A stretch of DNA of 55,350 bases, from the NCBI GenBank assembly GCA_038046345.1, contig JBBSWJ010000029.1:1-55350 (forward strand), written 5' to 3'. The position numbers were made by a program, and so were the translations under genes. This stretch comes from Nanobdellota archaeon (lineage in GTDB: Archaea > Nanobdellota > Nanobdellia > SCGC-AAA011-G17 > JACPNG01). Below the pieces are notes generated by a model. It saw nothing but the letters and a program-made list of their open reading frames with translations. It did no database searches and had not been told where the DNA came from. This document shows, one piece after another, positions 1-46,119 of the stretch; position 1 is the stretch's first letter; every line of letters starts with the position of its first letter.

Positions 1-42
1 ATGGATGTTTTAAGATAGTATAAACTGTATAGATCAAGAAAG

Positions 43-131
43 AAAATGGGAATGGTCTAGTGTGGGTAATTACAATAATTATTGTGTTATTAATTGTTGT
101 AGGATATTTGTTTGTTAAAAGAAGAAAGTAA
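43..131 (+). pseudogene. Orphan 3' fragment (TM tail plus stop) of a surface-protein gene, matching 3076..3164 with one mismatch (g50 vs a3083)
   Basis: Encodes ...NGNGLVWVITIIIVLLIVVGYLFVKRRK* in the frame ending with TAA at 129..131. The same frame has stops at 21..23 and 30..32 and no homology to the 781-aa gene upstream of about position 43. Confidence 0.5.
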
Positions 132-278
132 CCTTTTGTGTTAATGTCATAATAGCTGAGATAAAGAAAGTACTAACGGAATGACTGTTTTAGGTTATAC
201 AGTAATTTTATTAAGAAGCATACTACTTTAATAATCAAACCAAAATAGGCGGTTAAGTTTATTAAAACCTGGTGGAAA

Positions 279-680
279 ATGACTAAACAAGGACAAGAAG
301 ATCAAACAACCATGAATCATGTATACGAAAATGGTTTGGAAAATACAGTAAGGCTAGAGCTATTGCAAAGTAGATTAGGAAATGCTAGAAAAAGGCAATT
401 AGCAGTTTATATCAGAGCAGCAGCAAGAACAATTTTACCAGTTGTAGGTTTTGTTGCTGTTAGTGGTGGTATAGCTAAGTGTAATGATTATTTATTTGAT
501 AACAGTGGTTTAGCTGAATTGATTACAATTGTGACTGTTGGTACTGCTGGTTGGATATTAAGCACTAGTGGTGCAGTAAAAGACTACTGCTGGTTGGTTA
601 GTGATGCAATAGATTCTATAAGAGATGCAAATATGATGATTAGACATTACAGAAAACAACTCACTGAATTAGAGCAATAA
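279..680 (+). CDS. Hypothetical small membrane protein (two predicted TM helices flanked by charged/coiled segments), cassette copy A
   Basis: 133-aa ORF with GGTGG 4 nt upstream of the ATG. Hydrophobic stretches ILPVVGFVAVSGGIA and LITIVTVGTAGWILSTSGAV. Exact duplicate at 3312..3713. Confidence 0.7.
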   Translation: MTKQGQEDQTTMNHVYENGLENTVRLELLQSRLGNARKRQLAVYIRAAARTILPVVGFVAVSGGIAKCNDYLFDNSGLAELITIVTVGTAGWILSTSGAVKDYCWLVSDAIDSIRDANMMIRHYRKQLTELEQ

Positions 681-818
681 ACATTTCTTTTATTTTTTTA
701 TATCACCTAATTTTTTACACAAATGATTTTTTTTAGAAACATTTAAATATAAGTTACTCTTTTAATTTCCTAAGGTGATAGTTATTACAAAAAAAATTGG
801 TGTAAGGGGGGATTTTCT

Positions 819-3164
819 GTGAATACCAAATTATTATTACTTTTAGTTATAACAATCTCAATTTTTTCTTTTAACTCTAATCTTATTGTTGCAGATATAA
901 ATACGCAATTAAATTCTGAGCTGATTAATGTGACATTATCTCCAGCGGTGGGTGTTGGAGCAACAGTATTCGGAGATCAAATACAGCAAAATAATACAAA
1001 TGTAAGATTTAACTTTACTATTGCTGTTAATGGTACAATTAATTTTACTATAATTAACATAACAGTTCCTCATAATATTACATTTACTGGAGATTTTACA
1101 GTAAATGATACTGATGATGTGCTTGCTGTGGATGAGGATTTTGCAGGTCTAGCTAATGCAACAAATGATACGGGCGAAGGTGGTAATCCATGGGTATTTT
1201 CGAACTCAACAGATGCAGGTGATGATATAAAGTATATACACTGGAATAGTACTGATCCTAATGGAACCGGCGGTGCAGTGATATTTAGCATTAATTTTAC
1301 TGCTAATAATCTAACCGGAAATGTAGATGATGCAAGAATTGATTGGAATATAAGTATCACCTTTGCAGATGGTGGGCATGAAGACCCGAACTCAGCTGCA
1401 AGTGAGAACTCAACAGTAGTATACACATGGGTAGATATGCTTGTACCAAGATTATCTGAAGTTAATGTAACTGATGGGAATGCAACATTAGTTAATGGTA
1501 CTGCATATGGGTTTGAGGCAGATTTTGATGATGATAATGTACAAGTAATGGACCACTTTTCAAATAAAAGTGCTACAGTATATACTACCTTAACAGAAAT
1601 AAATGTTGATCAATTAAATATGTACTACTTATGTAATAGTAGTGTTGGTGAAGCAAATGTAACATTTGCTGCATTCTACAGCAATGTAAGTATGAGTACT
1701 AGTGATTCTGTATCACCATACTTATTTACAGGCACAATTGATCATGCTAACTGTGTAAACACAGAGAATAACGCAACAACATTCTTATTTTCAATAACAG
1801 ATGATGCAAATAGGCATACTTCTGTTAATGATAGCGTAGGTGCAGCAGATGTTAGTGTACCATTTGGATTTGGGGTAATAGGAAATAGCAGTCTCCCAGT
1901 AATAATTGAGGTAAATATAACAGATCAAAGCAGGACACTTAAACTAAACGATAAGGGGTTACGCGGAGGAAATGATTATTTATCATCTAACTCTAGAATG
2001 GACATAAATGTAGATATGAGTGGAAGAGGATTTGCATCAGATTCTGATGGATCAAACCAGTCATTCTTTTACATAACAAACACAACCACCGAATCAAATA
2101 CTCGCTTTGAAGATTGGTTTTCAGAAGGACAACAAATAGGATTGTTAAACATATCTAGGGATATAGACGGCAGTGGTAGTTTAACATCACAATTTAATGG
2201 AACAATACCTAAAGGACTTATAAACGATACTGATGGAACATCTGGAACATCAACAGGTAATTTTACAAATTTCCTGCTATTAATAAATGACTCGCGTGAC
2301 TACACACAACACTTCTTTGGAGTATTTGTTGTGGACGGAGGAGATCCAACAGCTAAAATAACAAGCCCTGCTGATACGAATATTAATGTGTTGAACAGCA
2401 TAAAGTATGGTTGTTCAGGAACTGATAGTGTTAGCGGTATAGCAGAATGTAAGGTGAGTGTATCAAAACCTGATGGAACTGTTATTAGTAAGACTAGCAG
2501 TAATTGTGTTGATCAGACATTCACTAATACTGATACAAATCTACCAGGAGCATACACTGTTGAATGTACAGTTACGGATAGTGTTGGATACACATCTGCT
2601 AAAACAACTGGTGCATTTGATGCTAGTACCTCAGCTGGAACTAGCGGTGACAGTGGCGGTGGCAGTAGTGGTGGAACTGGTACTAGCAGATCTGGAGAGG
2701 AACTAACTTTAGATGCTGATTTGAGTACCTCTGATGCAAGCTTTACTGGTAAAGCTGGTGAAACAAAAGTCTTTAGTTTGAGTGGCGGTGATGCTCATAC
2801 CGTGACATTTGTTGAAGTTACTGAAGATTCTGTAACTATAACAATTGAGAGTTATAAAGCTGAAGTAACATTGAATGTTGGTGAGACTAAAGATGTAGAT
2901 ATGGACGGTGATGGAACACCTAATATTCAAGTAACATTAGAAAGTATTACTAATGGTGTTGCAAAGATCAGCTTTGTAAAACTGTCAGATGTAGTCCCTG
3001 AAGAAGAAACAGAACAAGAACCAAGCACTGAAGAAAAAGAAGAAGGAAAAATAGAAGAAGAGGTTAATAATAACCAAAATGGAAATGGTCTAGTGTGGGT
3101 AATTACAATAATTATTGTGTTATTAATTGTTGTAGGATATTTGTTTGTTAAAAGAAGAAAGTAA
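819..3164 (+). CDS. Large surface (S-layer-like) glycoprotein, copy A: signal peptide, sequon-rich N-terminal region, PKD/Ig-like domain, G/S linker, C-terminal TM plus KRRK tail
   Basis: GTG start preceded by AAGGGGGG. N-terminal hydrophobic signal. 35 N-X-S/T sequons by my count in the first ~520 aa. AYTVECTVTDSVGYT resembles a PKD motif. Tail is LVWVITIIIVLLIVVGYLFVKRRK. Confidence 0.9.
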   Translation: MNTKLLLLLVITISIFSFNSNLIVADINTQLNSELINVTLSPAVGVGATVFGDQIQQNNTNVRFNFTIAVNGTINFTIINITVPHNITFTGDFTVNDTDDVLAVDEDFAGLANATNDTGEGGNPWVFSNSTDAGDDIKYIHWNSTDPNGTGGAVIFSINFTANNLTGNVDDARIDWNISITFADGGHEDPNSAASENSTVVYTWVDMLVPRLSEVNVTDGNATLVNGTAYGFEADFDDDNVQVMDHFSNKSATVYTTLTEINVDQLNMYYLCNSSVGEANVTFAAFYSNVSMSTSDSVSPYLFTGTIDHANCVNTENNATTFLFSITDDANRHTSVNDSVGAADVSVPFGFGVIGNSSLPVIIEVNITDQSRTLKLNDKGLRGGNDYLSSNSRMDINVDMSGRGFASDSDGSNQSFFYITNTTTESNTRFEDWFSEGQQIGLLNISRDIDGSGSLTSQFNGTIPKGLINDTDGTSGTSTGNFTNFLLLINDSRDYTQHFFGVFVVDGGDPTAKITSPADTNINVLNSIKYGCSGTDSVSGIAECKVSVSKPDGTVISKTSSNCVDQTFTNTDTNLPGAYTVECTVTDSVGYTSAKTTGAFDASTSAGTSGDSGGGSSGGTGTSRSGEELTLDADLSTSDASFTGKAGETKVFSLSGGDAHTVTFVEVTEDSVTITIESYKAEVTLNVGETKDVDMDGDGTPNIQVTLESITNGVAKISFVKLSDVVPEEETEQEPSTEEKEEGKIEEEVNNNQNGNGLVWVITIIIVLLIVVGYLFVKRRK

Positions 3165-3311
3165 CCTTTTGTGTTAATGTCATAATAGCTGAGATAAAGA
3201 AAGTACTAACGGAATGACTGTTTTAGGTTATACAGTAATTTTATTAAGAAGCATACTACTTTAATAATCAAACCAAAATAGGCGGTTAAGTTTATTAAAA
3301 CCTGGTGGAAA

Positions 3312-3713
3312 ATGACTAAACAAGGACAAGAAGATCAAACAACCATGAATCATGTATACGAAAATGGTTTGGAAAATACAGTAAGGCTAGAGCTATTGCA
3401 AAGTAGATTAGGAAATGCTAGAAAAAGGCAATTAGCAGTTTATATCAGAGCAGCAGCAAGAACAATTTTACCAGTTGTAGGTTTTGTTGCTGTTAGTGGT
3501 GGTATAGCTAAGTGTAATGATTATTTATTTGATAACAGTGGTTTAGCTGAATTGATTACAATTGTGACTGTTGGTACTGCTGGTTGGATATTAAGCACTA
3601 GTGGTGCAGTAAAAGACTACTGCTGGTTGGTTAGTGATGCAATAGATTCTATAAGAGATGCAAATATGATGATTAGACATTACAGAAAACAACTCACTGA
3701 ATTAGAGCAATAA
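3312..3713 (+). CDS. Hypothetical small two-TM membrane protein, cassette copy B (identical to 279..680)
   Basis: Protein identical to copy A, with the same upstream sequence. Confidence 0.7.
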   Translation: MTKQGQEDQTTMNHVYENGLENTVRLELLQSRLGNARKRQLAVYIRAAARTILPVVGFVAVSGGIAKCNDYLFDNSGLAELITIVTVGTAGWILSTSGAVKDYCWLVSDAIDSIRDANMMIRHYRKQLTELEQ

Positions 3714-3851
3714 ACATTTCTTTTATTTTTTTATATCACCTAATTTTTTACACAAATGATTTTTTTTAGAAACATTTAAATATAAGTTACTCTTTTAATT
3801 TCCTAAGGTGATAGTTATTACAAAAAAAATTGGTGTAAGGGGGGATTTTCT

Positions 3852-6194
3852 GTGAATACCAAATTATTATTACTTTTAGTTATAACAATCTCAATTTTTT
3901 CTTTTAACTCTAATCTTATTGTTGCAGATATAAATACGCAATTAAATTCTGAGCTGATTAATGTGACATTATCTCCAGCGGTGGGTGTTGGAGCAACAGT
4001 ATTCGGAGATCAAATACAGCAAAATAATACAAATGTAAGATTTAACTTTACTATTGCTGTTAATGGTACAATTAATTTTACTATAATTAACATAACAGTT
4101 CCTCATAATATTACATTTACTGGAGATTTTACAGTAAATGATACTGATGATGTGCTTGCTGTGGATGAGGATTTTGCAGGTCTAGCTAATGCAACAAATG
4201 ATACGGGCGAAGGTGGTAATCCATGGGTATTTTCGAACTCAACAGATGCAGGTGATGATATAAAGTATATACACTGGAATAGTACTGATCCTAATGGAAC
4301 CGGCGGTGCAGTGATATTTAGCATTAATTTTACTGCTAATAATCTAACCGGAAATGTAGATGATGCAAGAATTGATTGGAATATAAGTATCACCTTTGCA
4401 GATGGTGGGCATGAAGACCCGAACTCAGCTGCAAGTGAGAACTCAACAGTAGTATACACATGGGTAGATATGCTTGTACCAAGATTATCTGAAGTTAATG
4501 TAACTGATGGGAATGCAACATTAGTTAATGGTACTGCATATGGGTTTGAGGCAGATTTTGATGATGATAATGTACAAGTAATGGACCACTTTTCAAATAA
4601 AAGTGCTACAGTATATACTACCTTAACAGAAATAAATGTTGATCAATTAAATATGTACTACTTATGTAATAGTAGTGTTGGTGAAGCAAATGTAACATTT
4701 GCTGCATTCTACAGCAATGTAAGTATGAGTACTAGTGATTCTGTATCACCATACTTATTTACAGGCACAATTGATCATGCTAACTGTGTAAACACAGAGA
4801 ATAACGCAACAACATTCTTATTTTCAATAACAGATGATGCAAATAGGCATACTTCTGTTAATGATAGCGTAGGTGCAGCAGATGTTAGTGTACCATTTGG
4901 ATTTGGGGTAATAGGAAATAGCAGTCTCCCAGTAATAATTGAGGTAAATATAACAGATCAAAGCAGGACACTTAAACTAAACGATAAGGGGTTACGCGGA
5001 GGAAATGATTATTTATCATCTAACTCTAGAATGGACATAAATGTAGATATGAGTGGAAGAGGATTTGCATCAGATTCTGATGGATCAAACCAGTCATTCT
5101 TTTACATAACAAACACAACCACCGAATCAAATACTCGCTTTGAAGATTGGTTTTCAGAAGGACAACAAATAGGATTGTTAAACATATCTAGGGATATAGA
5201 CGGCAGTGGTAGTTTAACATCACAATTTAATGGAACAATACCTAAAGGACTTATAAACGATACTGATGGAACATCTGGAACATCAACAGGTAATTTTACA
5301 AATTTCCTGCTATTAATAAATGACTCGCGTGACTACACACAACACTTCTTTGGAGTATTTGTTGTGGACGGAGGAGATCCAACAGCTAAAATAACAAGCC
5401 CTGCTGATACGAATATTAATGTGTTGAACAGCATAAAGTATGGTTGTTCAGGAACTGATAGTGTTAGCGGTATAGCAGAATGTAAGGTGAGTGTATCAAA
5501 ACCTGATGGAACTGTTATTAGTAAGACTAGCAGTAATTGTGTTGATCAGACATTCACTAATACTGATACAAATCTACCAGGAGCATACACTGTTGAATGT
5601 ACAGTTACGGATAGTGTTGGATACACATCTGCTAAAACAACTGGTGCATTTGATGCTAGTACCTCAGCTGGAACTAGCGGTGACAGTGGCGGTGGCAGTA
5701 GTGGTGGAACTGGTACTAGCAGATCTGGAGAGGAACTAACTTTAGATGCTGATTTGAGTACCTCTGATGCAAGCTTTACTGGTAAAGCTGGTGAAACAAA
5801 AGTCTTTAGTTTGAGTGGCGGTGATGCTCATACTGTAACATTTGTTGAAGTTACTGAAGATTCTGTAACTATAACAATCGAGAGCTATAAAGCTGAAGTA
5901 ACATTAAATGTTGGTGAGACTAAAGAAGTTGACATGGACGGGGATGGAACACCTAATGTCCAAGTAACATTAGAAAGTATTACTAATGGTGTTGCAAAGC
6001 TCAGCTTTGTAAAACTATCAAATGTAGTACCTGAAGAAGAAACAGAACAAGAACCAAGCATGGAAGAAAAAGAAGAAATACCTGTAGGATCAGGCGTAAC
6101 AGAAACAGGTATAAGCTTATGGACATGGGTAGTATTATTAGCTGTGCTGGTACTAGTTGGCTTTGTAGTATTCAGAGTCATGAAAAGGAAGTAA
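3852..6194 (+). CDS. Large surface glycoprotein, copy B, with a divergent C-terminal anchor
   Basis: Identical to copy A until about aa 660. A few substitutions follow, then a different tail: PVGSGVTETGISLWTWVVLLAVLVLVGFVVFRVMKRK. Confidence 0.9.
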   Translation: MNTKLLLLLVITISIFSFNSNLIVADINTQLNSELINVTLSPAVGVGATVFGDQIQQNNTNVRFNFTIAVNGTINFTIINITVPHNITFTGDFTVNDTDDVLAVDEDFAGLANATNDTGEGGNPWVFSNSTDAGDDIKYIHWNSTDPNGTGGAVIFSINFTANNLTGNVDDARIDWNISITFADGGHEDPNSAASENSTVVYTWVDMLVPRLSEVNVTDGNATLVNGTAYGFEADFDDDNVQVMDHFSNKSATVYTTLTEINVDQLNMYYLCNSSVGEANVTFAAFYSNVSMSTSDSVSPYLFTGTIDHANCVNTENNATTFLFSITDDANRHTSVNDSVGAADVSVPFGFGVIGNSSLPVIIEVNITDQSRTLKLNDKGLRGGNDYLSSNSRMDINVDMSGRGFASDSDGSNQSFFYITNTTTESNTRFEDWFSEGQQIGLLNISRDIDGSGSLTSQFNGTIPKGLINDTDGTSGTSTGNFTNFLLLINDSRDYTQHFFGVFVVDGGDPTAKITSPADTNINVLNSIKYGCSGTDSVSGIAECKVSVSKPDGTVISKTSSNCVDQTFTNTDTNLPGAYTVECTVTDSVGYTSAKTTGAFDASTSAGTSGDSGGGSSGGTGTSRSGEELTLDADLSTSDASFTGKAGETKVFSLSGGDAHTVTFVEVTEDSVTITIESYKAEVTLNVGETKEVDMDGDGTPNVQVTLESITNGVAKLSFVKLSNVVPEEETEQEPSMEEKEEIPVGSGVTETGISLWTWVVLLAVLVLVGFVVFRVMKRK

Positions 6195-21693: not shown

Positions 21694-21987
21694 GAGTAGG
21701 GTAGGCATAAGCCGCCTTCTGTCAGTTCCCGTGATGGTCGAACTGAGGTGACATTCAACTTAGCACCCTTTTTGGGCTTGCACCGATTGGGGCTCACCGT
21801 TTCATCATGCCAGTATCATTGTCAGCTGTTTAACAGCATCATCCTAAATAAAGGCTGTATCGTTTCTGTGTGGTTGCCTTTTCTTTCGAAAACTTCCTTT
21901 TCAGAAAGCAACCCATAAGAGCTCTTAACGAGCTGGTGGGCGGACTTTCCTCAGTCATAGACCGTAAGTCACCTACCTACCTACTAC
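21694..21987 (-). ncRNA. rnpB: RNase P RNA (archaeal)
   Basis: The reverse complement carries CR-I GAGGAAAGTCCGCCC (plus-strand coordinates 21938..21953). It also carries the CR-V/P4 3' strand ACAGAAGGCGGCTTATG (21706..21722). Terminal P1 pairing is GTAGGTAGG... with ...CCTACCCTAC. The segment is a local GC-rich island without an ORF, and a TATA-like AAATTTAAAAG lies about 25 nt upstream on the minus strand. The ends are approximate. Confidence 0.85.
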
Positions 21988-28703: not shown

Positions 28704-28801
28704 CGCCCAAGCCGGGAATCGAACCCGGATCGCAGCCGTTCTACAAAACCATAAATGAATTTTTCGACAGGGCTACGTGATAGCCGTTACACTACTTGGG
28801 C
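28704..28801 (-). tRNA. tRNA-Asp (anticodon GTC) with a ~26-nt intron in the anticodon loop
   Basis: Reverse complement folds with acceptor GCCCAAG/CTTGGGC, discriminator G and T arm CCGGG-TTCGATT-CCCGG. The anticodon stem TAGCC/GGCTG encloses 33 nt beginning CTGTC. The exact splice sites were not resolved. Confidence 0.75.
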
Positions 28802-31802: not shown

Positions 31803-31930
31803 CCCGCTGTAGTTTAGTGGTAGAACATTCGGCTGTAGCTAGTAGCGCTGTTTTGACCTTAGCACTTGCCAGGGATGATAAATATTCAGCAGAACCCGGA
31901 AAGTCGCTGGTTCGAATCCAGCCAGCGGGA
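31803..31930 (+). tRNA. tRNA-Tyr (anticodon GTA) with a ~56-nt intron
   Basis: Acceptor CCCGCTG/CAGCGGG gives a C1-G72 pair, with discriminator A. D stem GTTT/GAAC. The anticodon stem TTCGG/CCGGA encloses 63 nt beginning CTGTAG. T arm GCTGG-TTCGAAT-CCAGC. Confidence 0.85.
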
Positions 31931-31932
31931 TT

Positions 31933-33351
31933 TTACTCATTTTTTTTAGCAGTCAAATATAATCTATTGGACTTAGTTTGTAATCTTTTATTTTTATTGC
32001 TGTATAATACAGCTGCTGGTGGCAATTTTATTGTTCCAACAATATGAACTTTACTGTGCACTTTATATGTTAAAACTCTTTCTTCTCCGGGAGCTAAGTT
32101 TCCAAATCCCCATGTTAATCTTATTCCCTGAGCTGCTTTTTGAATTTTTTCTGGTTTTAAAGTTCCAAACTCAGGTGTTGGGCTCATTAAGTGCGGCAGA
32201 AAATCTACTATTTTTACATTAGGGATATTACCAAGCTTATTCCTGATTATTAATTTTATTTTTATCTCTGTTATACCATCTTTTTCTCTTGTTACTGAGT
32301 AAAGCTCCTTTTTAATTGTTATTTTTCTAGTGAAAAAATATACTATAAATATTATTAATGCTATTACTAATACTACACCAACTACAAATGATCTAAAATC
32401 AACTTTTACAACTATCTCTTGGTATTCACCAGGCTTTAGCTCAAATGCCCACTCGAAATAGTTTTTAGTAGCTGCTGTTGGAGCCGGTGTTGCTACTGCA
32501 AATGTTTGTTCAAATCTGTTTAATGGTATTCTAACTTTTTCTTCTACTGCTAAATTTCCATCATTAGTTTTTACCATGGTAATCTCTTTTTTAAAAAATG
32601 AGTTTTTCTTCTGAACTTGTTCTGTTATGTCCGGGTTTTTAATTATCTGAAATGTTTTTTTGTAATTACCAAGCTCTTCTTTTTCTGTTACTACTTTTAT
32701 TTGCAGTGTATACTGGCCCGGTGTTGTTGATGTTGGGATATCAAGCAGAATTTTTTTACTTATTTTTACATCGTAGATAAGTGGAGTAGTGAATTCATCT
32801 TCAAATAATTCTGATATTATCTTTACTGTAGCATTCTTTATCAGAATGTTTACTGAAGGTTCTACAGTTACTGTAAACTCTTTTTCTTTTGAAATTGTTA
32901 TGTCATCTGGCAGATCAGTATTAATTATGGTTAATTGCGGAGGGTTTATCAATCTAAACTCTAATGGTATTCTGACTTTTAATTCAGGATTTGTAACTGC
33001 TGTTATTGTTAGCATTGTTTGTATTCTCTGATTAGGTGGCACTGATTCGAATGTTTTAATCTTAACGTCTACATCCCTTGTTTCTCTTGGTGGTATTTTG
33101 ATAGTATGTGGTTTAATTATTATATCTTGTATTGACTCTGAGAATGGATGGACATCTAATTGGTTTGAGTTTATAGAAAATGTTGTTTCTGTGTCACCTT
33201 TGTTTCTTAGTTCTAATGTGTAGGCTGCTACTCCTCCCGGAGTTATTTCTGTTTTACTCCTTAAAATTTCTGTGCTTAGTACACTTCCAAAAACTGGAGT
33301 AACAAGGAGTAATATAATTGTTAGCAATAGAAATAGTTTTGAGTTGACCAT
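31933..33351 (-). CDS. Hypothetical surface protein with CARDB/NEW3-like beta-sandwich repeats, one TM segment and a ~125-aa C-terminal domain
   Basis: Signal peptide MVNSKLFLLLTIILLLVTPVFG. PGGVAAYTLELRNKGDTETTF is a pattern typical of CARDB/NEW3 domains. TM segment is FVVGVVLVIALIIFIVYFF. The C-terminal GNLAPGEERVLTYKV is DUF11-like. Confidence 0.7.
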   Translation of the reverse strand: MVNSKLFLLLTIILLLVTPVFGSVLSTEILRSKTEITPGGVAAYTLELRNKGDTETTFSINSNQLDVHPFSESIQDIIIKPHTIKIPPRETRDVDVKIKTFESVPPNQRIQTMLTITAVTNPELKVRIPLEFRLINPPQLTIINTDLPDDITISKEKEFTVTVEPSVNILIKNATVKIISELFEDEFTTPLIYDVKISKKILLDIPTSTTPGQYTLQIKVVTEKEELGNYKKTFQIIKNPDITEQVQKKNSFFKKEITMVKTNDGNLAVEEKVRIPLNRFEQTFAVATPAPTAATKNYFEWAFELKPGEYQEIVVKVDFRSFVVGVVLVIALIIFIVYFFTRKITIKKELYSVTREKDGITEIKIKLIIRNKLGNIPNVKIVDFLPHLMSPTPEFGTLKPEKIQKAAQGIRLTWGFGNLAPGEERVLTYKVHSKVHIVGTIKLPPAAVLYSNKNKRLQTKSNRLYLTAKKNE

Positions 33352-33557: not shown

Positions 33558-34799
33558 ATGGATGATAAAGGGTATTACCAAAAACGTTGGTACAAAGGTC
33601 TAATCCCAATAGATATACTATTCCCAAATAAACAATTTGGCGGGATTTATCACTTAGGAATTCATATTTTGTATGACCTTATTATGAGGGACGTAAGGTT
33701 TACAGCAAAAAAAGTGTATAGTGACTCTGGGAGACTAACAAGCAAACTAATAGGGATAAGCATATCATATGAAAGAGATTTTAAAAGAATACCAAAATTA
33801 CTAAAGGAAAATAATATCAAGATCACAAAAGATAGAGAACAAATAATATTTTGCGGCGGAACTGCAGTAATGTTAAACACAAAATCTATAGAACCAATAG
33901 CAGACTTTATAGTTCTTGGAGATATAGAAGCAATAATGCCTGAAGTTTTAAAAAAATACAAAGAACAAGGAAAGGAACAATTTCTTAAAGAAATAAAAGA
34001 CATAGAAGGGGTTTACATACCAGGCGGAAAAAAAACAGTAAAGGAAATTGAAGATTTAGATTTAGTCGCATATCCATTGTACCAACCGCTGCCAGAAAAT
34101 ATGAATAACAAATTTGTTTTTGGAGAAACATTCATGCTTGAAATTGAAAGATCCTGCCCATACAGCTGTTCATTTTGTGTTATTCCGGCCGTCAATAAAA
34201 AAAATAAAATAAGAAGCCTTGAAAGCATAAAGAAAATAATAGATGCAGGAATTAAGATAAATAAAAGAGAACATGTAACAATATATAGCCCAGCGTTTAC
34301 ACATCCAAAAAGAAAAGAAATACTAAAATACTTACTTGAAAAAGGCTTAAGATTTTCACTGCCATCAATAAGAGCAGAAGTAATAGACGAAGAATTACTT
34401 GAATTAATACAACAAGGCGGAGAAAAAAGCATAACAATAGCACCAGAAAGCACTGAAAGATTAAGAAAAGATTTAGGGAAAGCTGTATCAAATAAAGTTT
34501 ATGAGAATATTATAAACTTAGCAAAAAATCATGGTCTAAAAGTAAAATTGTATGCTCTGATAGGCACACCTGGAATGTCTGATCTAGATGTAGAGGAATT
34601 ATGCCGGTGGTTAAATCAACAAAAATGCTACGTTTCAATTAATCCTCTAGTCCCTAAAAAACTTACAGAATTATCATACTATAAATTTGACACGGAAAAA
34701 ATAAAAAAACAAGCAGAGATAGTAAAGAAAAATCTAAAAGTAAAATACAAAATAGCTAATATTAATAATTCTTACGAAGAGTATATAGCAGGAATATGA
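33558..34799 (+). CDS. Radical SAM protein (COG1032-like, with an N-terminal B12-binding-like domain)
   Basis: ERSCPYSCSFCVIP contains the CxxxCxxC motif, preceded by a Rossmann-like N-terminal domain. ATGA overlap with the downstream gene. Confidence 0.85.
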   Translation: MDDKGYYQKRWYKGLIPIDILFPNKQFGGIYHLGIHILYDLIMRDVRFTAKKVYSDSGRLTSKLIGISISYERDFKRIPKLLKENNIKITKDREQIIFCGGTAVMLNTKSIEPIADFIVLGDIEAIMPEVLKKYKEQGKEQFLKEIKDIEGVYIPGGKKTVKEIEDLDLVAYPLYQPLPENMNNKFVFGETFMLEIERSCPYSCSFCVIPAVNKKNKIRSLESIKKIIDAGIKINKREHVTIYSPAFTHPKRKEILKYLLEKGLRFSLPSIRAEVIDEELLELIQQGGEKSITIAPESTERLRKDLGKAVSNKVYENIINLAKNHGLKVKLYALIGTPGMSDLDVEELCRWLNQQKCYVSINPLVPKKLTELSYYKFDTEKIKKQAEIVKKNLKVKYKIANINNSYEEYIAGI

Positions 34800-35323
34800 G
34801 ATATGAAAATCATCTAATATTAAGAATTGGAATATTAGCCGGGCTGTTTGTTTTGCCAGCTGATATATTTTATAAGATTCTGTTAAAACCAACACTATTC
34901 ATAACTGAAAAAATTCTTCTAAAATATAATCCTATCGTTATAGGAACAAAGATAGTTATAGGGGAACATAGCCTTAATTTTGTTCCAGCATGTACAGCCA
35001 CATTAGCGTACTTGCTACTTGCAGGATTGGTGCTTACAACAAGAGATATGACATTAATAAAAGGATTGAAAGTATACTTTGTTGGTGGCACTATCATATT
35101 TATTGCTAATATTATACGTGTAGCAGGGCTAGCGGTATTATTAATAGAAAAAGGGTATAACACATTCAATAAAGTGCATTTATTTATCTGGGATGGACTC
35201 TCGAGTGTATTTGTGGTTTTAGTGTGGATATTCTTAGTGTATTATTTTAGCATAAAAGAAATCCCAATATACAGTGATATTAAGAAACTGATACGACACC
35301 TAAAGTTATCAAGGAAACAATAA
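34796..35323 (+). CDS. Miniature exosortase/archaeosortase-family protein (175 aa)
   Basis: Polytopic membrane protein. Candidate catalytic residues appear in the family order: FVPACTATLAYL (Cys), FIANIIRVAGLAVL (NxxR Arg) and KVHLFIWDG (His). Confidence 0.65.
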   Translation: MRYENHLILRIGILAGLFVLPADIFYKILLKPTLFITEKILLKYNPIVIGTKIVIGEHSLNFVPACTATLAYLLLAGLVLTTRDMTLIKGLKVYFVGGTIIFIANIIRVAGLAVLLIEKGYNTFNKVHLFIWDGLSSVFVVLVWIFLVYYFSIKEIPIYSDIKKLIRHLKLSRKQ

Positions 35324-35729
35324 TAGCAGCTATTAATACGCCTAAACTAATAGCACAAAAAGCCTTGGCTCTGTTCAAACCAAAAAACCAAGAAATAACT
35401 GAAGCAGTATAAGCGCCGGTTAATGGAAATGGGACCGCTGTGAATAATAAGATCGCAGTAAACTCAGCTTTAGTACCTATTTTGTGTTCAATCTTTTTCC
35501 TTGTTCTATCAATATACTTATTAAATAATTTGTTGTATGATACGTTATTCATAAATAAATGATGGAATTTATTCATAAAAAAATACACTAAAGGAATAAC
35601 TAAGATATTACCCAGTATTGCGATGATAATCACTAAAAAAAATGGGTCACCTGCTGTAAATCCATAAGGTATTGCCCCGCGCAACTCACTGATAGGCAGC
35701 AATGATAAAATAAATACTTTCCATAACAT
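35280..35729 (-). CDS. Small multidrug-export-like membrane protein (COG2426 / Sm_multidrug_ex family)
   Basis: LLPISELRGAIPYGF is the hallmark N-terminal motif. 149 aa with 4 TM segments. Confidence 0.7.
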   Translation of the reverse strand: MLWKVFILSLLPISELRGAIPYGFTAGDPFFLVIIIAILGNILVIPLVYFFMNKFHHLFMNNVSYNKLFNKYIDRTRKKIEHKIGTKAEFTAILLFTAVPFPLTGAYTASVISWFFGLNRAKAFCAISLGVLIAAIIVSLITLGVVSVS

Positions 35730-36218: not shown

Positions 36219-36710
36219 ATGAATTACATGACTGTTGCAATAAGAAAAGGATTGAGTTTTGGGCTAACTTCAGGTGTTATAACTACCCTTGGGCTAATAA
36301 TTGGATTAAACTCTGGAACGCATTCAAGACTGGTAGTTGTTAGCGGAATCTTAGTCATAGCTGTTGCAGATGGTTTATCAGACGCAATTGGTATACATCT
36401 ATCAGAAGAAACAGATAAAAAATCTAACAAAGCGGTATGGCAGACAACTATATCAACATTTTGTTCAAAGTTTATTTTTGCGTTAAGCTTTATGATACCA
36501 GTAATGCTGTTTCCATTAAATATAGCAATTTTAATTAGTATAATATACGGAATAACACTTGTTTGTGTATTAACTTACTACATTCAAGTCCAAAAAAATA
36601 ATAAACCATGGAAGATGATGCTTGAGCATGTGATATTAACATGTATAGTGGTTATTGTGTCACATATAGTAGGAAATGCATCAGCATCAATCAGTACCTT
36701 GAATTATTAA
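36219..36710 (+). CDS. VIT1/CCC1-family membrane protein (Fe/Mn transporter-like, short form)
   Basis: GLSFGLTSGVITTLGLIIGL and VIAVADGLSDAIGIHLSEE resemble VIT-family motifs. Confidence 0.6.
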   Translation: MNYMTVAIRKGLSFGLTSGVITTLGLIIGLNSGTHSRLVVVSGILVIAVADGLSDAIGIHLSEETDKKSNKAVWQTTISTFCSKFIFALSFMIPVMLFPLNIAILISIIYGITLVCVLTYYIQVQKNNKPWKMMLEHVILTCIVVIVSHIVGNASASISTLNY

Positions 36711-37553
36711 AATATCCTCTGTAGTCAACTTACCAGATTTTTTAAATTTTTCTTCAACTGACTTAGCTTTTTTCTTGATAAGCTCTTTTTCCTTCTTTTC
36801 TCTGATCTCTTTAGCTGTTTTTGCATAAGTGTTTATCTTATTTTCAATGGCAGAAAGCTGATCTATCTTAATCTTAAGTGTATTTTTGAATTTAATATAC
36901 TCATTTTTTTTATGAATAAACTCCTTCCAAGCTGTTTCTTGCAGTTTTTTTATATCAATTATTTTATTAGACAGCCCCCAGTATTCTTTTTGTTTTTCTT
37001 TGTTTGAACTTAAACTATCTAAAAGCTGTTTATGCGCATTGTCCGCTTTTTCCTTGATATCGTGTAGTAGAGAAGAAAGAATATTTATTTTAGAGAATAC
37101 TTCATTAAATTTTTCGTTCTCAGCGTATTTTCTTTTAAGTTTTTTAATGCGTTCAAGAACCCGCTGTTCCTGTTCATAAGAAAATGCTTCAATCTCTATG
37201 CTTTCCTCAAGACGAGCGATATCTGACTTTAAACTACCAAGAGATGGTTGCTTGTCTGAAGCAGAAGCTTGAGTGCGTAATAGTTTAATCTGCGATATAA
37301 TACTTTGAACTTGTGAGTTATATTTGTCACGCTCTTTCCTTAATGAACCGGCTGATTTCAGTTCATCAACAGGGCGTAATTTTTTTACTTGGTCGATATG
37401 ATCTTTTAAAACAGCATTTAAACGATCCTTCTCTTTGAATGCTTTTTCTTTAGCAATATGAAGGTCGGAAAGAATCTTTTTATCAGAAGCAATCTGCCTA
37501 GTTAAATCGTTAATATTCTTCTTAAGCTTTTGTTTTTCTTCTTCTAAAAGCAA
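36687..37553 (-). CDS. Archaeal coiled-coil protein (COG1340-like)
   Basis: 288 aa, almost entirely K/E/L heptad-like sequence. Lies directly upstream, by transcription order downstream, of the stalk operon. Confidence 0.65.
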   Translation of the reverse strand: MLLEEEKQKLKKNINDLTRQIASDKKILSDLHIAKEKAFKEKDRLNAVLKDHIDQVKKLRPVDELKSAGSLRKERDKYNSQVQSIISQIKLLRTQASASDKQPSLGSLKSDIARLEESIEIEAFSYEQEQRVLERIKKLKRKYAENEKFNEVFSKINILSSLLHDIKEKADNAHKQLLDSLSSNKEKQKEYWGLSNKIIDIKKLQETAWKEFIHKKNEYIKFKNTLKIKIDQLSAIENKINTYAKTAKEIREKKEKELIKKKAKSVEEKFKKSGKLTTEDILIIQGTD

Positions 37554-37591
37554 CTGCTACCTCTGATCCATCTTAACATAAAAAAGAATGG

Positions 37592-37882
37592 CTAACCAAA
37601 GAGAGCGCTCAATCCAACTGATGCGTCTTCAACTTTTGCTTCTTCTTTCTTTTCAATTTTCTTCTCAGCTTTTACTCCGCTAGCAGATGGTATTGCTGCT
37701 ACTGGTGCTACGGCTACTTTGATAACTTCATCAAGATTGACCCCGCTTAATGCTGCAATGAGTGCTTTAATCTTTGTTTCATCAACAGCAATTCCTGCGG
37801 CTTCAGCAATTTTTTTTAAGTTTGCTTCGTCAACTTTTTTGCCAGCTTTGTGCAAAAGTAGTACTGCGTATAGTAGTTCCAT
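37592..37882 (-). CDS. rpl12: Ribosomal stalk protein P1 (archaeal L12)
   Basis: Begins MELLYAVLLLHKAGKKVDEANL... and ends in the conserved stalk tail ...EDASVGLSALFG. GGAGGT lies 4 nt upstream of the ATG at 37882. Confidence 0.9.
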   Translation of the reverse strand: MELLYAVLLLHKAGKKVDEANLKKIAEAAGIAVDETKIKALIAALSGVNLDEVIKVAVAPVAAIPSASGVKAEKKIEKKEEAKVEDASVGLSALFG

Positions 37883-37895
37883 TGTTACCTCCCGA

Positions 37896-38702
37896 TTAGT
37901 TATTAGCTCCATTGTTTTCAAAATTTTTTTGATCTGTCACAGAATCTAAAGCGTTATATTCTTGAATAGCCTTGGTTAATAATGGTACAACTGTGTCATC
38001 AGTGATGTAATTTAAGTTAATTGCAACACTAATAGCTTCTGAGACAATAAGTTTAATGTTTTTTATAATCTGTGCTTCATCAATATTAAGTGTGTCTTTA
38101 CCATAGATTATTCCATGATCATATATAGCAAGAACATTGAGCCCAATTTCCATAGGTTCTATTCCTAATTTAGTCAGAAGATTTGCTGCTTTTTCTGATA
38201 TTACTGCTCCTTCCTTAACAAGTACTTTATCTTCTTTAACAGCAATTTTTCCGTTTTCTACTGAAGTTTTAATACCTAACTGTCCAAGTTCTCCGATGAT
38301 TGGACCAGGCTGGAATGGTGTTGGACCAGCAGTGATAATTAGATCTTTTGGAGCTGTTTGACCTGGTTTTGCTGCAGCAGAAGACTTGCTTTTTTTAATT
38401 TCGTTATATAACCGGAATGGGTCTTCGTTGCTAAGTATTAATGCCGGCATGCCGTCCATATAAGCTAGTAAGCTGCTTATGTTATCTTTTTTGATATCCT
38501 TAAATGCAATTACAATAAGACGCTTTTTAGCCATGAAAAAACTAGCTTTACCTTTAAGTTGTTGAATCATTCTCTGCAGTTGTAGGGAAGGAAGCCCGTT
38601 CATATTGACAATGCTAATAGTGTTATACTTTTTTACTAACTCTTTTATCCTGATAGTAACATCCTGTTTGTTTTGAGCTTTACAGCAAGTTTTCTCACTC
38701 AT
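37896..38702 (-). CDS. rplP0: Ribosomal stalk protein P0 (uL10), unusually short
   Basis: The N-terminal domain ...ISIVNMNGLPSLQLQRMIQQLKG..FFMAKKRL is typical of archaeal P0. ATG at 38702 after GGTGA (the ORF extends to a TTG at 38714). The protein ends ...DQKNFENNGANN without an acidic or GLxALFG tail. Confidence 0.85.
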   Translation of the reverse strand: MSEKTCCKAQNKQDVTIRIKELVKKYNTISIVNMNGLPSLQLQRMIQQLKGKASFFMAKKRLIVIAFKDIKKDNISSLLAYMDGMPALILSNEDPFRLYNEIKKSKSSAAAKPGQTAPKDLIITAGPTPFQPGPIIGELGQLGIKTSVENGKIAVKEDKVLVKEGAVISEKAANLLTKLGIEPMEIGLNVLAIYDHGIIYGKDTLNIDEAQIIKNIKLIVSEAISVAINLNYITDDTVVPLLTKAIQEYNALDSVTDQKNFENNGANN

Positions 38703-39351
38703 TTTCTTCACCAACCAATACCGGGTTAGACATAGTAAATTTTAAAAATATACTGCCGATATCTTCTTTATTGTGTGGAAGTGCCTGGGTTATTGCTTCA
38801 ATTATAGAAATAGCATTCTGAGCAAGCATATCATCGCTCATGGACTCTTTACCAATAACTGATTTGATAATTAGTTCTTTTTTAATTTGTAATCTCACTG
38901 TTTTTTTAAGTCGATCTTTAACAATATCTAGCTTAGCAGTTGGTGGGACAACACAACCAAGTTTAGGATTTGGCATCTTGCCGCGCGAACCAAGTATTTT
39001 ACCAAATACTTTTGCGATGTCAACCATTAAAGTAGATTGAGCTATAAAGTAATCATAATCTTCTGTTAACTTTTTAATATTTTTTTTGTCTAGATTACTG
39101 AAGTCACTTTTAAGAATGGTATGATCTAAGATTTTTTTTGATGCATCACTAAGCTCTTTGTCTACAAGCCCACATATTTTGACAGGTCTACCAATACCAT
39201 GCGGAAGCAATGCAGATGTATCAACTCTATGTTCTGGATTTTTGAGGTCTATCTGTAATATGTTAATGATGATATCAACAGACTGATCAAAATTACGTTT
39301 CTTTGATGATCTTAGTTTTTTTATTGCTGTTGTTAATAGTTTATTGTCCAT
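38695..39351 (-). CDS. rpl1: Ribosomal protein uL1
   Basis: Contains KKRNFDQSVDIIINL... and LPHGIGRPVKICGL.., as in archaeal L1. GGAGGG lies upstream of the ATG. Confidence 0.9.
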   Translation of the reverse strand: MDNKLLTTAIKKLRSSKKRNFDQSVDIIINILQIDLKNPEHRVDTSALLPHGIGRPVKICGLVDKELSDASKKILDHTILKSDFSNLDKKNIKKLTEDYDYFIAQSTLMVDIAKVFGKILGSRGKMPNPKLGCVVPPTAKLDIVKDRLKKTVRLQIKKELIIKSVIGKESMSDDMLAQNAISIIEAITQALPHNKEDIGSIFLKFTMSNPVLVGEENE

Positions 39352-44142: not shown

Positions 44143-46119
44143 ATGTTTAGAAAACTATTAATAAGTATTTTAGCAATTATGCTTTTCGCAGTGCTACCAG
44201 TAGCTGCTGTGGGAGACCTTACAATTACTAACGCAGTCGGCACAACTGGGCAATCTGTAAACCCTGAAGCAGAGATCACAGGAAGTTTTGATATTAAAAA
44301 TGGCGGGATATCTTCAATCACAAATATAGGCATAACTGCTACAGATCTTGTATTTGGTACTAATAAAATACCATCTTCTAAAGTGGTTATAACTCCAAAC
44401 AGTGTAGCTACACTTGATGCAGGCCTATCAAAAACTATAACATTTACCTTAAAAGTACCTGTAAATCAAATACCCGGCTTATATGCTGGTAATTTCGAAG
44501 CAAAAGATGTTACAGCAACAAATAGCGCAGTTACAGATCTTTCTATTACTGTTAAAACATTAAAATCTTTAAATGTAGTTGAAGATGTAGTCACAATAAC
44601 AGGAGAAGACGGGGAGGCTGTTGAAGGCGTTGTTACTATGAAAAACACAGGAAATGTAGACCTTACTTTTGATACCTCCAGTATTATTCATGATATCACC
44701 CTTACAGACAATGATGAGGATGAGATCACATTATTTGTTGCAGCTATACCAACCAGTATTGTTCCTGGAGAACAGAAAACATTCAAAATAAAAGCAGATT
44801 TTGAAACAGGCATAGATGTTGATACTTATTCAGGCGAAGTTACCATAACAAGCAAAGAAGGAGCAGTAGATAAATTCAACCTTGAACTAAATGTTCAACC
44901 GGAAGTATGTGAAAAAGGGATTGTTGGTAATTTAGAAATTGACCTTCAAAAGCCGGACAATGGAGATGACTTTTCACTAGGAGAGACTGTAAGCATAGAA
45001 GTAAAAGTGGACAATGAAGATGATAGTGACTTAGACGTTGAAGTTGAAGCATTCTTATACAATGTAGATGAAAACTCTGTAATCGAAAGAGTTACTAGCG
45101 ATTCCCTTGAAGTTAGAGAGGGAGAAAATGAAGACTTTAACCTAGATCTAGACATACCATTTGACAGTGATATTAATGAAGATGATGAGTACATCTTATA
45201 TGTAAAAGCATACGAAAACGGGGATGAAGATAAAAACTGTGCTCAGGATCAAATAGACATCGGAATTGATCGCCAAAAGGATGATGTCCGTGTTGAAAAT
45301 GTTCTTGTTACACCAAGCACAGCAGCATGCGGAGAAGTTGCTGAATTTGTTGTTGATGTTATAAACGTTGGAAGCAACGATCAACGTGATGTGCATGTGG
45401 AATTGATCAATTCAGAACTTGGAATTAAAGAGCAATCAGAAGAATTTGACATAGACAAAGGTAGTGACCCCGATAATGACGCCAAGAAAAGATTTACTTT
45501 TACAATTCCTAATGATGCTGAAGAGAAAACTTATAGCATTGAAGGAGTAGTAGTATTTGATGATGGAAACGAGAAGAATTCAGAGTTTGTTTCATTAAAC
45601 GTTCTTGGATGCGGCGAAACACCTGTTGAACCACCGGTACAAGATGAGGAAGATATAACTATACAAGTATTAGACCCAGAATTTGATGCTACTGGCAAAA
45701 GCTTGAGCATACCTACAAATATTAATAATAACCTTAATGTGCAAAAAACACTTCATGTAAGCCTTGCAAATGTTGATGATTGGACTACTGATGCAAGTTC
45801 TGAAAAAGTTGTAACATTAAAACCAGGTCAAATGACTACACTGTACTTTTATATAACCGTAGACGATGATTCTACTGGTTTACAAACAGCAACTTTAAAT
45901 GTTAAGGACACAGCAGGAAGTATACTTGTAAGTGATACCTTTTCAGTTGAGCTTAACGAAGATAAAGTTACGGTTGTAGATGACCCAGATAATGATGGGC
46001 TTTTAGGTGGTATTAGAGATTTTACCACTAACAGCAACGTATTAGTATGGGTTATTGCAGATATAATCCTAGTAGTAGTTGTAGTGCTGCTATTAAAGTT
46101 TTTATTCTCTAAAAAGTAA
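44143..46119 (+). CDS. Large acidic surface protein with CARDB-like repeats and a C-terminal LVWVI-TM-basic tail
   Basis: GGAGGT lies upstream of the ATG. Signal peptide MFRKLLISILAIMLFAVLPVAAVG. Repeated ...V.N.G... beta-sandwich patterns. Tail is NSNVLVWVIADIILVVVVVLLLKFLFSKK. Confidence 0.85.
   Translation: MFRKLLISILAIMLFAVLPVAAVGDLTITNAVGTTGQSVNPEAEITGSFDIKNGGISSITNIGITATDLVFGTNKIPSSKVVITPNSVATLDAGLSKTITFTLKVPVNQIPGLYAGNFEAKDVTATNSAVTDLSITVKTLKSLNVVEDVVTITGEDGEAVEGVVTMKNTGNVDLTFDTSSIIHDITLTDNDEDEITLFVAAIPTSIVPGEQKTFKIKADFETGIDVDTYSGEVTITSKEGAVDKFNLELNVQPEVCEKGIVGNLEIDLQKPDNGDDFSLGETVSIEVKVDNEDDSDLDVEVEAFLYNVDENSVIERVTSDSLEVREGENEDFNLDLDIPFDSDINEDDEYILYVKAYENGDEDKNCAQDQIDIGIDRQKDDVRVENVLVTPSTAACGEVAEFVVDVINVGSNDQRDVHVELINSELGIKEQSEEFDIDKGSDPDNDAKKRFTFTIPNDAEEKTYSIEGVVVFDDGNEKNSEFVSLNVLGCGETPVEPPVQDEEDITIQVLDPEFDATGKSLSIPTNINNNLNVQKTLHVSLANVDDWTTDASSEKVVTLKPGQMTTLYFYITVDDDSTGLQTATLNVKDTAGSILVSDTFSVELNEDKVTVVDDPDNDGLLGGIRDFTTNSNVLVWVIADIILVVVVVLLLKFLFSKK

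Follow-up and report, generated by a model that had tools for sequence, protein, structure and literature searches.

A predicted pacearchaeosortase and its putative S-layer substrate in a Nanobdellota contig, with an overlapping radical-SAM gene

The stretch of DNA analysed here, called the window throughout, comprises 55,350 nucleotides (nt) of contig JBBSWJ010000029.1 from the assembly GCA_038046345.1 of a Nanobdellota archaeon. It encodes a predicted protein-sorting system, consisting of a small membrane enzyme of the exosortase/archaeosortase superfamily (the sortase) and a surface-layer (S-layer) protein as its putative target, together with a radical S-adenosylmethionine (rSAM) gene whose stop codon overlaps the start codon of the sortase gene. 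The window is archaeal, as indicated by an archaeal RNase P RNA at 21696..21984, and its GC content was 31-36%. The features at the center of the analysis were the following, with lengths in amino acids (aa) and TM denoting transmembrane:

34796..35323, + strand: pacearchaeosortase of 175 aa, above the cutoffs of NF033505 and TIGR04178; polytopic membrane enzyme, predicted to be Cys-protease/transpeptidase-like, with C66/N105/R108/H128 and a C-terminal IKEIPIYSD
44143..46119, + strand: PACE-CTERM putative S-layer protein of 658 aa, NF033506 217 bits
46036..46119, + strand: predicted PACE-CTERM sorting signal of the 658-aa protein, NVLVWVIAD, TM helix, KFLFSKK; 18.0 bits on a tail profile from other genomes
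819..3164, + strand: sequon-rich surface protein of 781 aa, tail NGNGLVWVITIIIVLLIVVGYLFVKRRK at 3084..3164; candidate second substrate
3852..6194, + strand: 780-aa paralog of the 781-aa protein by pairwise comparison, tail ISLWTWVV..RVMKRK
43..131, + strand: remnant of another copy of the 781-aa tail, lying at the edge of the window within a 3033-bp tandem repeat
33558..34799, + strand: radical-SAM protein of 413 aa, Radical_SAM_N2 and Radical_SAM domains, CxxxCxxC at C200/C204/C207
34796..34799, + strand: ATGA overlap of the rSAM stop and the sortase start, read directly as ...GGA ATA TGA GAT...

The 175-aa protein was matched by the NCBIfam model NF033505, entitled "pacearchaeosortase", at 105.4 bits against a cutoff of 80, with residues 7-168 of 175 aligned to model positions 4-165 of 167, and by the superfamily signature TIGR04178 at 32 bits against a cutoff of 23. 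A preliminary description of the window, made from the letters alone, had called this protein archaeosortase-like, and the profile hidden Markov model (HMM) searches bore this out. The Pfam family Exosortase_EpsH (PF09721) scored 15.4 bits, under its gathering score of 25.7; reliance on Pfam alone would therefore have led to a false rejection of the sortase assignment, and it was the NCBIfam models that settled the identity. Judged by its sequence, the protein is a genuine member of the curated pacearchaeosortase family within the exosortase/archaeosortase superfamily. In an alignment of 25 sequences with 31-95% identity to the window protein, C66 (in PACTAT), N105 and R108 (both in ANIIRV) and H128 (in KVHLF) were invariant, and the order Cys, Arg, His, which had been likened beforehand to that of the catalytic residues of the superfamily, is thus conserved in the homologs. 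The C-terminal motif IKEIPIYSD was specific to the family, its P, Y and D being invariant in the 25 homologs. A confident AlphaFold model based on the same alignment (predicted local distance difference test, pLDDT, 82.5; predicted template modeling score, pTM, 0.75) revealed a bundle of helices in which a small beta-hairpin directly precedes the Cys-bearing helix, and C66, R108 and H128 all lay within helices. Because the positive-inside rule puts the K/R-rich C-terminus and the 82-90 loop in the cytoplasm, the secondary structure would place these three residues in the outer half of the membrane.

The size of the enzyme, singled out as "miniature" in the preliminary description, proved unremarkable, since several curated exosortase/archaeosortase models span only 150-170 positions and the miniature format is thus an established one. 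The models of ArtD (TIGR04175), XrtH (TIGR04177), XrtX (NF046081), XrtS and XrtR, with 150-168 positions, gave weak matches over the Cys-Arg-His core (E ~1e-3); at 15-20 bits against cutoffs of 86-170, the window sortase belongs to none of these families.

The 658-aa PACE-CTERM protein is predicted to be the principal substrate of this sortase. Its 217 bits exceeded the cutoff of 110 of NF033506, "PACE-CTERM-PROT putative S-layer protein", which upheld the earlier proposal that its tail, with NVLVWVIA at 46036..46059, is a candidate sortase-substrate tail. Enzyme and S-layer target form a pair that is already curated, as the NCBIfam models NF033505 and NF033506 are named for each other; both window proteins passed the cutoffs over their full lengths, with the invariant Cys/Arg/His and the IKxIPIYSD motif on the side of the enzyme. 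A literature search found no paper naming pacearchaeosortase, and the family is known via HMM curation.

Relatives of the sortase were obtained by scanning one genome per GTDB species, which yielded 116, and the best 80 of the 116 loci were studied with 10-kb flanks, so that presence and absence counts describe sortase neighborhoods rather than whole genomes. Genes in the loci were called by a simple longest-open-reading-frame (ORF) procedure, and the key counts were taken from tblastn and blastp matches. The 116 relatives were labeled Woese-, Pace- or Nanoarchaeota, save a few on contigs that are probably mis-binned. Three sortase-bearing contigs of 3.4-4.3 kb (L037, L045, and L048) carried bacterial bin labels (an unclassified 'bacterium', Dojkabacteria, Vicingus); their DNA is probably of DPANN origin and wrongly binned.

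In 54 of the 80 loci an S-layer homolog was located no more than 10 kb from the sortase, which made it by far the best-conserved neighbor, so enzyme and target co-localize in most genomes. The window differs from this pattern in that its S-layer gene is 9 kb from the sortase rather than adjacent, that an rSAM gene overlaps the sortase start, and that a PAP2-family phosphatase, a frequent neighbor in the closest sortase relatives, is missing.

The S-layer tails had a consensus which, numbered from the tryptophan at position 0, began with small or polar residues, N occupying -4, and continued with a hydrophobic residue, W, [IV], I and [GA], followed by a helix and a K/R cluster. After [GA], D was found at +4 in the clade of the window and N at +6 in the Pacearchaeota-type clade. 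The core can be written N-x-x-h-W-[IV]-I-[GA]-[DN], where h is hydrophobic, followed by a TM helix and K/R, and the motif adjoins the TM helix. Substrate signature motifs of intramembrane sorting enzymes are described as abutting the TM helix in bioRxiv 10.1101/2023.06.07.544157. The LVWVI of the window tails corresponds to the family-wide core N(-4)-x-x-h-W(0)-[IV]-I. In the window, NGLVWVIT at 3084..3107, the remnant copy ending at 131, NVLVWVIA and the SLWTWVV of the 780-aa copy were all located where the preliminary description had put them. As an exact pentapeptide, LVWVI was seen 3 times, against 0.12 expected, across 403,429 aa of predicted protein sequence encoded in the window and the loci, and two of the three occurrences were the tails of the 658-aa and 781-aa proteins, at equal distance from the C-terminus. 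The codons differed between the two genes, so the match is held at the protein level and is not a recent DNA copy; recent gene conversion as its source is ruled out on the same grounds.

Tails were scored with a position weight matrix trained only on S-layer tails of other genomes, with shuffled tails (n = 5000) for comparison. The tail of the 658-aa protein reached 18.0 bits, no shuffles having been run for it. It could be argued that the W-rich tails are ordinary TM anchors with an interfacial Trp, that the 175-aa protein is inactive or acts elsewhere, and that there is no sorting system. Trp is generally common at membrane interfaces, and 24 of the 56 anchored S-layer-family tails lacked the strict h-W-h-h pattern. 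However, the tails conserve polar positions for which simple anchoring gives no reason (N at -4, G/A at +3, and D at +4 or N at +6 within the helix), and two unrelated proteins from the same genome retain LVWVI with differing codons. With the S-layer gene so often beside the sortase, the catalytic-type residues invariant and both families represented by mutually named curated models, plain anchoring appears very unlikely.

The 781-aa protein, with its N-x-L-V-W-V-I motif, is a plausible extra substrate on the basis of its tail, which scored 10.6 bits on the S-layer-derived matrix, was equaled by 12 of 5000 shuffles and ranked third among 55 anchored tails from outside the S-layer family. The 780-aa paralog was 95% identical to it, the two diverging almost only over the last ~60 aa, which points to different C-terminal anchor signals. 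Its tail scored -0.2 bits, a value reached by 274 of 5000 shuffles and thus chance-like, so the earlier view of SLWTWVV as a similar signal was not supported by this profile. The broader proposal of several W-motif substrates in the window is therefore plausible with regard to the 781-aa protein, beside the 658-aa protein of the curated substrate class, and lacks support from the S-layer-derived profile for the 780-aa protein. None of the curated NCBIfam sorting-signal models recognized the tail of either paralog, the best match being LPXTG_anchor at 12.4 bits, under its cutoff.

The 781-aa protein belongs to a family with 1382 homologs at E <= 0.001, the named members of which come from metagenome-assembled genomes of Nanoarchaeota. 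Among its top 149 homologs (P0070-P0218), a C-terminal anchor was found in 148, a Trp at the anchor start in 96 and W-x-W in 55, while in about 60 the helix carried G-[YWF]-[YWFL] close to its cytoplasmic end. The family tail can be summarized as [S/N]-x-x-W-[LIV]-W-[IV], a TM helix ending in G-Y-[FYW], and K/R; it is related to the S-layer signal but distinct from it, and the 780-aa tail looks like the W-x-W form common in this family. This conserved Trp-rich tail may be an uncurated sorting signal. The two paralogs lie in a 3033-bp tandem duplication within 36..6194 of the window, in which positions 36-335 and 3069-3368 matched at 99%. Each unit of the duplication holds an identical 133-aa ORF (279..680 and 3312..3713) and a sequon-rich surface protein of ~780 aa.

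ArtA of Haloferax volcanii is considerably larger than the 175-aa window protein, and anchoring by ArtA depends on PssA/PssD lipid synthesis, a dependence for which no counterpart was recognized in the window. The two enzymes share the TIGR04178 superfamily signature, a conserved Cys and Arg, and an S-layer substrate with a tripartite signal. In ArtA, Cys173, Arg214 and Arg253 are reported as critical for activity in PMC9263693, and a Cys/Arg/His triad is given as the suspected one for the superfamily in bioRxiv 10.1101/2023.06.07.544157; the third critical residue of ArtA is thus Arg253, unlike the third invariant residue of the window sortase, His128. ArtA acts on the S-layer glycoprotein, whose signal joins a motif, a TM helix and a basic tail (PMC6098224; bioRxiv 10.1101/2023.06.07.544157), the motif being PGF where the window signal is W-[IV]-I-[GA]-[DN]. 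We infer that the window system works like ArtA/PGF-CTERM, with a smaller enzyme and a Trp-centered signal. By this analogy, the sortase would recognize the three-part signal at the substrate C-terminus, on the outer-leaflet edge of its TM helix, would cleave the helix off by means of the conserved Cys with the Arg and His assisting, and would probably transfer the protein to a membrane lipid.

The rSAM gene was confirmed as an ORF at 33558..34799 with the CPYSCSFC motif noted at the outset, whose cysteines C200, C204 and C207 were invariant in 21 clade members. Pfam assigned PF04055 at 66 bits (gathering score 29.5) and PF19864 at 64.8 bits; the Pfam B12-binding domain gave 16.7 bits against a threshold of 32.1. 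The best NCBIfam match was TIGR03960, at 104.2 bits far under the cutoff of 462.3. Like the bacterial B12-binding rSAMs of that family, the window protein has the Radical_SAM_N2 plus Radical_SAM architecture, but it is ~200 aa shorter and falls into a separate, DPANN-specific clade of ~20 clusters at >=40% identity. Beyond this clade came bacterial TIGR03960 proteins with 24-32% identity, e.g., from Clostridioides. The comparison places the 413-aa protein as a distant relative of TIGR03960, not a member. A literature search found no paper mentioning the TIGR03960 family.

The overlap of the rSAM and sortase genes, read as ATATGA around 34796..34799, is real. It could have been suspected as an assembly artefact or a chimera of a metagenomic contig, as the 3033-bp tandem repeat near the window start is prone to mis-assembly and the source is apparently a metagenome-assembled DPANN genome. 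This explanation is next to impossible, since an independent Logan assembly (SRR22388197) contains a 95%-identical sister contig, L167, in which the 4-bp ATGA overlap recurs and the Sm_multidrug_ex and VIT genes come next, as in the window, and since the same gene order with variable spacing was found in >20 independent contigs; the junction in L167 by itself rules it out. The overlap is not in itself a sign of coupling, as the preliminary description had taken it to be, because 4-bp overlaps are common in these genomes: they occurred in 6 of 44 same-strand neighbor pairs in the window and in 118 of 1008 in related loci (~12-14%).

In the same description, the coupling had led to the proposal of an rSAM-archaeosortase partnership, with conserved adjacency in related genomes as one touchstone. 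The adjacency was not conserved, and by this touchstone, named beforehand, the partnership is not supported. Among the loci examined, rSAM and sortase abutted directly in just two contigs, the window and its sister of 95% identity. This rSAM lay within 10 kb of the sortase in only two of the 80 sortase loci (L012 and L013), in both of which 2-3 opposite-strand genes intervened, and the closest sortase relatives had the same gene block without an rSAM.

A complementary set was anchored on the rSAM and consisted of 8 contigs plus 78 loci from a metagenome scan, the latter with flanks of 6 kb only; 40 of these were informative, i.e., had enough flanking DNA, and the set includes the near-duplicates L122/L123, L103/L143, and L084/L090. 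In 24 of the 40, a sortase followed 0 to ~3.3 kb downstream, always on the same strand. Of these linked loci, 21 had one to seven intervening genes, in every case with one or more on the opposite strand, frequently a PAP2 phosphatase; three had none, namely the window (overlap of 4 bp), L112 with a gap of 148 bp, and L081 with one of 331 bp. The remaining 16 informative loci had no sortase within 3.4-10 kb. One locus, L086, retained the rSAM and the ribosomal genes of the block, with no sortase.

Where the rSAM was unlinked, a gene of the PAC2 family (proteasome assembly chaperone-like) lay upstream on the same strand in 12 of the 14 loci examined, immediately upstream in most, which indicates that the rSAM has a different tight neighbor elsewhere. 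PAC2 genes were recorded in L084, L089-L091, L096, L104, L113, L116, L117, L126, L127, and L129. Two opposite-strand membrane proteins, c4 (~172 aa) and c2 (~191 aa), followed the rSAM in unlinked loci, and c4 did so in 9 of the 24 sortase-linked loci as well; neither c2 nor c4 matched a Pfam family.

The genes next to the rSAM-sortase pair are these:

35280..35729, - strand: Sm_multidrug_ex family membrane protein (PF06695, 112.8 bits), convergent with the sortase; in 35 of 80 sortase loci
36687..39351, - strand: coiled-coil protein (36687..37553), then three genes read as ribosomal L12/L10/L1; homologs in 28-31 of 80 sortase loci
31933..33351, - strand: secreted or membrane Ig-like protein of 472 aa, divergent from the rSAM, with weak Ig-like Pfam matches

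The ribosomal names L12, L10 and L1 were taken from Pfam annotation of homologs in related loci. In related DPANN genomes the neighborhood forms a block with the order S-layer(-), PAP2(-), sortase(+), Sm_multidrug_ex(-), and then coiled-coil, L12, L10, and L1(-). The coiled-coil and ribosomal genes are its conserved backbone, on which the sortase and, in certain lineages, also the rSAM are carried. The coiled-coil and ribosomal homologs were also present in most linked rSAM loci; as they are retained in the block equally well, positional conservation alone implies no function.

A PAP2-family phosphatase on the opposite strand was a frequent upstream neighbor of the sortase, immediately adjacent in many loci (L002, L003, L004, L005, L009, L022-L024, L028, L029, L083, L085, L086, L092, L100, L118, and L138); the window contained no PAP2 homolog. 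The PAP2 gene upstream and an Sm_multidrug_ex or VTT/DedA-type gene downstream suggest that the genes around the sortase share a link to polyprenyl phosphate or lipid carriers.

The 472-aa protein has a signal peptide, an internal TM helix (~residues 325-345) and ~125 further residues, and its gene occupies the slot that is held in related genomes by an S-layer-family gene. It was considered as an S-layer paralog and rejected, having no BLAST relatives in any fetched locus, so that its link to the S-layer slot comes from position only.

The overlap of the rSAM with the sortase is best explained as a local accident of a compact genome and not as a conserved partnership. In related DPANN genomes the block would rearrange slowly, with an rSAM inside it and upstream of the sortase in one sub-lineage. 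In the window, the intervening genes would have been lost and the S-layer gene moved 9 kb away, leaving the rSAM stop overlapping the sortase start, an arrangement shared by roughly one of every eight same-strand neighbor pairs in such compact genomes. Overall, we consider it probable that the window encodes a pacearchaeosortase with the S-layer protein as principal substrate and the 781-aa protein as a plausible extra one, and that the rSAM is an unrelated or loosely associated passenger whose overlap arose from compaction of the block.

Several observations weigh against this conclusion. The linkage of rSAM to sortase, at 24 of 40 loci, is non-random. A neighbor-joining tree of the rSAMs, computed without support values, had the linked state scattered over the clade, so that linkage looks ancestral and long retained, which could reflect weak functional selection and not just inertia. 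In many linked loci an S-layer-family gene was divergent from the rSAM, ~160-430 bp upstream, and the absence of an rSAM from most sortase loci is established for their neighborhoods only. On the side of the enzyme, the AlphaFold model of the 175-aa protein found no fold match in the PDB (best Foldseek E 3.8) and a profile search no solved chain, although the fold comparison is uninformative rather than negative because there is no solved exosortase structure.

The same observations lead to the alternative that the rSAM is a lineage-specific accessory which modifies the S-layer precursor (e.g., by C-methylation) or the lipid acceptor before export or anchoring, its position between the S-layer gene and the sortase being selectively maintained. 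Besides the downstream same-strand sortases, the divergent S-layer-family genes and the spread of the linked state across the rSAM tree, this alternative would fit with the lipid-related PAP2 and Sm_multidrug_ex/VTT neighbors and with a weak similarity to protein-modifying archaeal B12-rSAMs (TIGR04014, 59 bits). On the other hand, 78 of the 80 sortase loci lacked an rSAM, including near relatives with an otherwise identical block, and the S-layer tails of rSAM-linked loci (L012, L086, L088, and the window) could not be distinguished from those of loci without an rSAM (L002, L003, L009, and L023). Outside the block, the rSAM had no sortase in reach and mostly followed a PAC2 gene; inside it, genes intervened in all but three of the linked loci, with an opposite-strand gene always among them, and the ribosomal genes were kept equally well. 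Moreover, rSAM enzymes are cytoplasmic and the active site of the sortase faces outward. An accessory role of the rSAM is therefore held to be unlikely.

A version of the accessory idea holds that the rSAM was recruited in one DPANN sub-lineage, with the ancestral order S-layer(-), rSAM(+), PAP2(-), and sortase(+), to modify the precursor or the lipid acceptor, and separately that the W-x-W...G-Y-[FYW]-K/R tails may be a signal for the same enzyme; we regard it as similarly doubtful.

Some further observations concern the surroundings of the system. A polytopic membrane protein of ~125 aa, with the conserved C-terminus ...LFVPATIIVALKTVF..., was found in 29 of the 80 sortase loci (Pacearchaeota-type clade; L018, L031, L033, L036, L041-L044, L046, L049, L050, L052, L054, L056, L059, L062-L065, L067-L071, L074, L075, L077, L079, and L080), close to the S-layer gene wherever positions were checked; the window has no homolog of it. 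Two tRNA genes in the window were detected by Rfam only and missed by ARAGORN, at 31803..31930 (+ strand, 57.5 bits, 128 nt) and 28704..28801 (- strand, 50.4 bits, 98 nt). The lengths of these matches suggest that both are archaeal tRNAs that probably contain introns.

Taken together, the window represents a routine instance of a curated but unpublished DPANN protein-sorting system, and the case warns against inferring function from 4-bp overlaps in compact genomes. The analysis documents the pacearchaeosortase, its S-layer substrate, PAP2 and membrane proteins of the lipid-carrier type as a conserved cell-surface block beside the L1/L10/L12 genes, and supplies the explicit consensus of the sorting signal given above. 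Should the rSAM, against the odds, mature the S-layer protein or the anchor, this would be a new enzymatic step in archaeal surface-protein anchoring, in organisms unable to make their own lipids, and would link a radical-SAM maturase with an exosortase/archaeosortase system for the first time. The results also point to a very large family of Nanoarchaeota surface proteins whose conserved Trp-rich tail lies outside any curated model.

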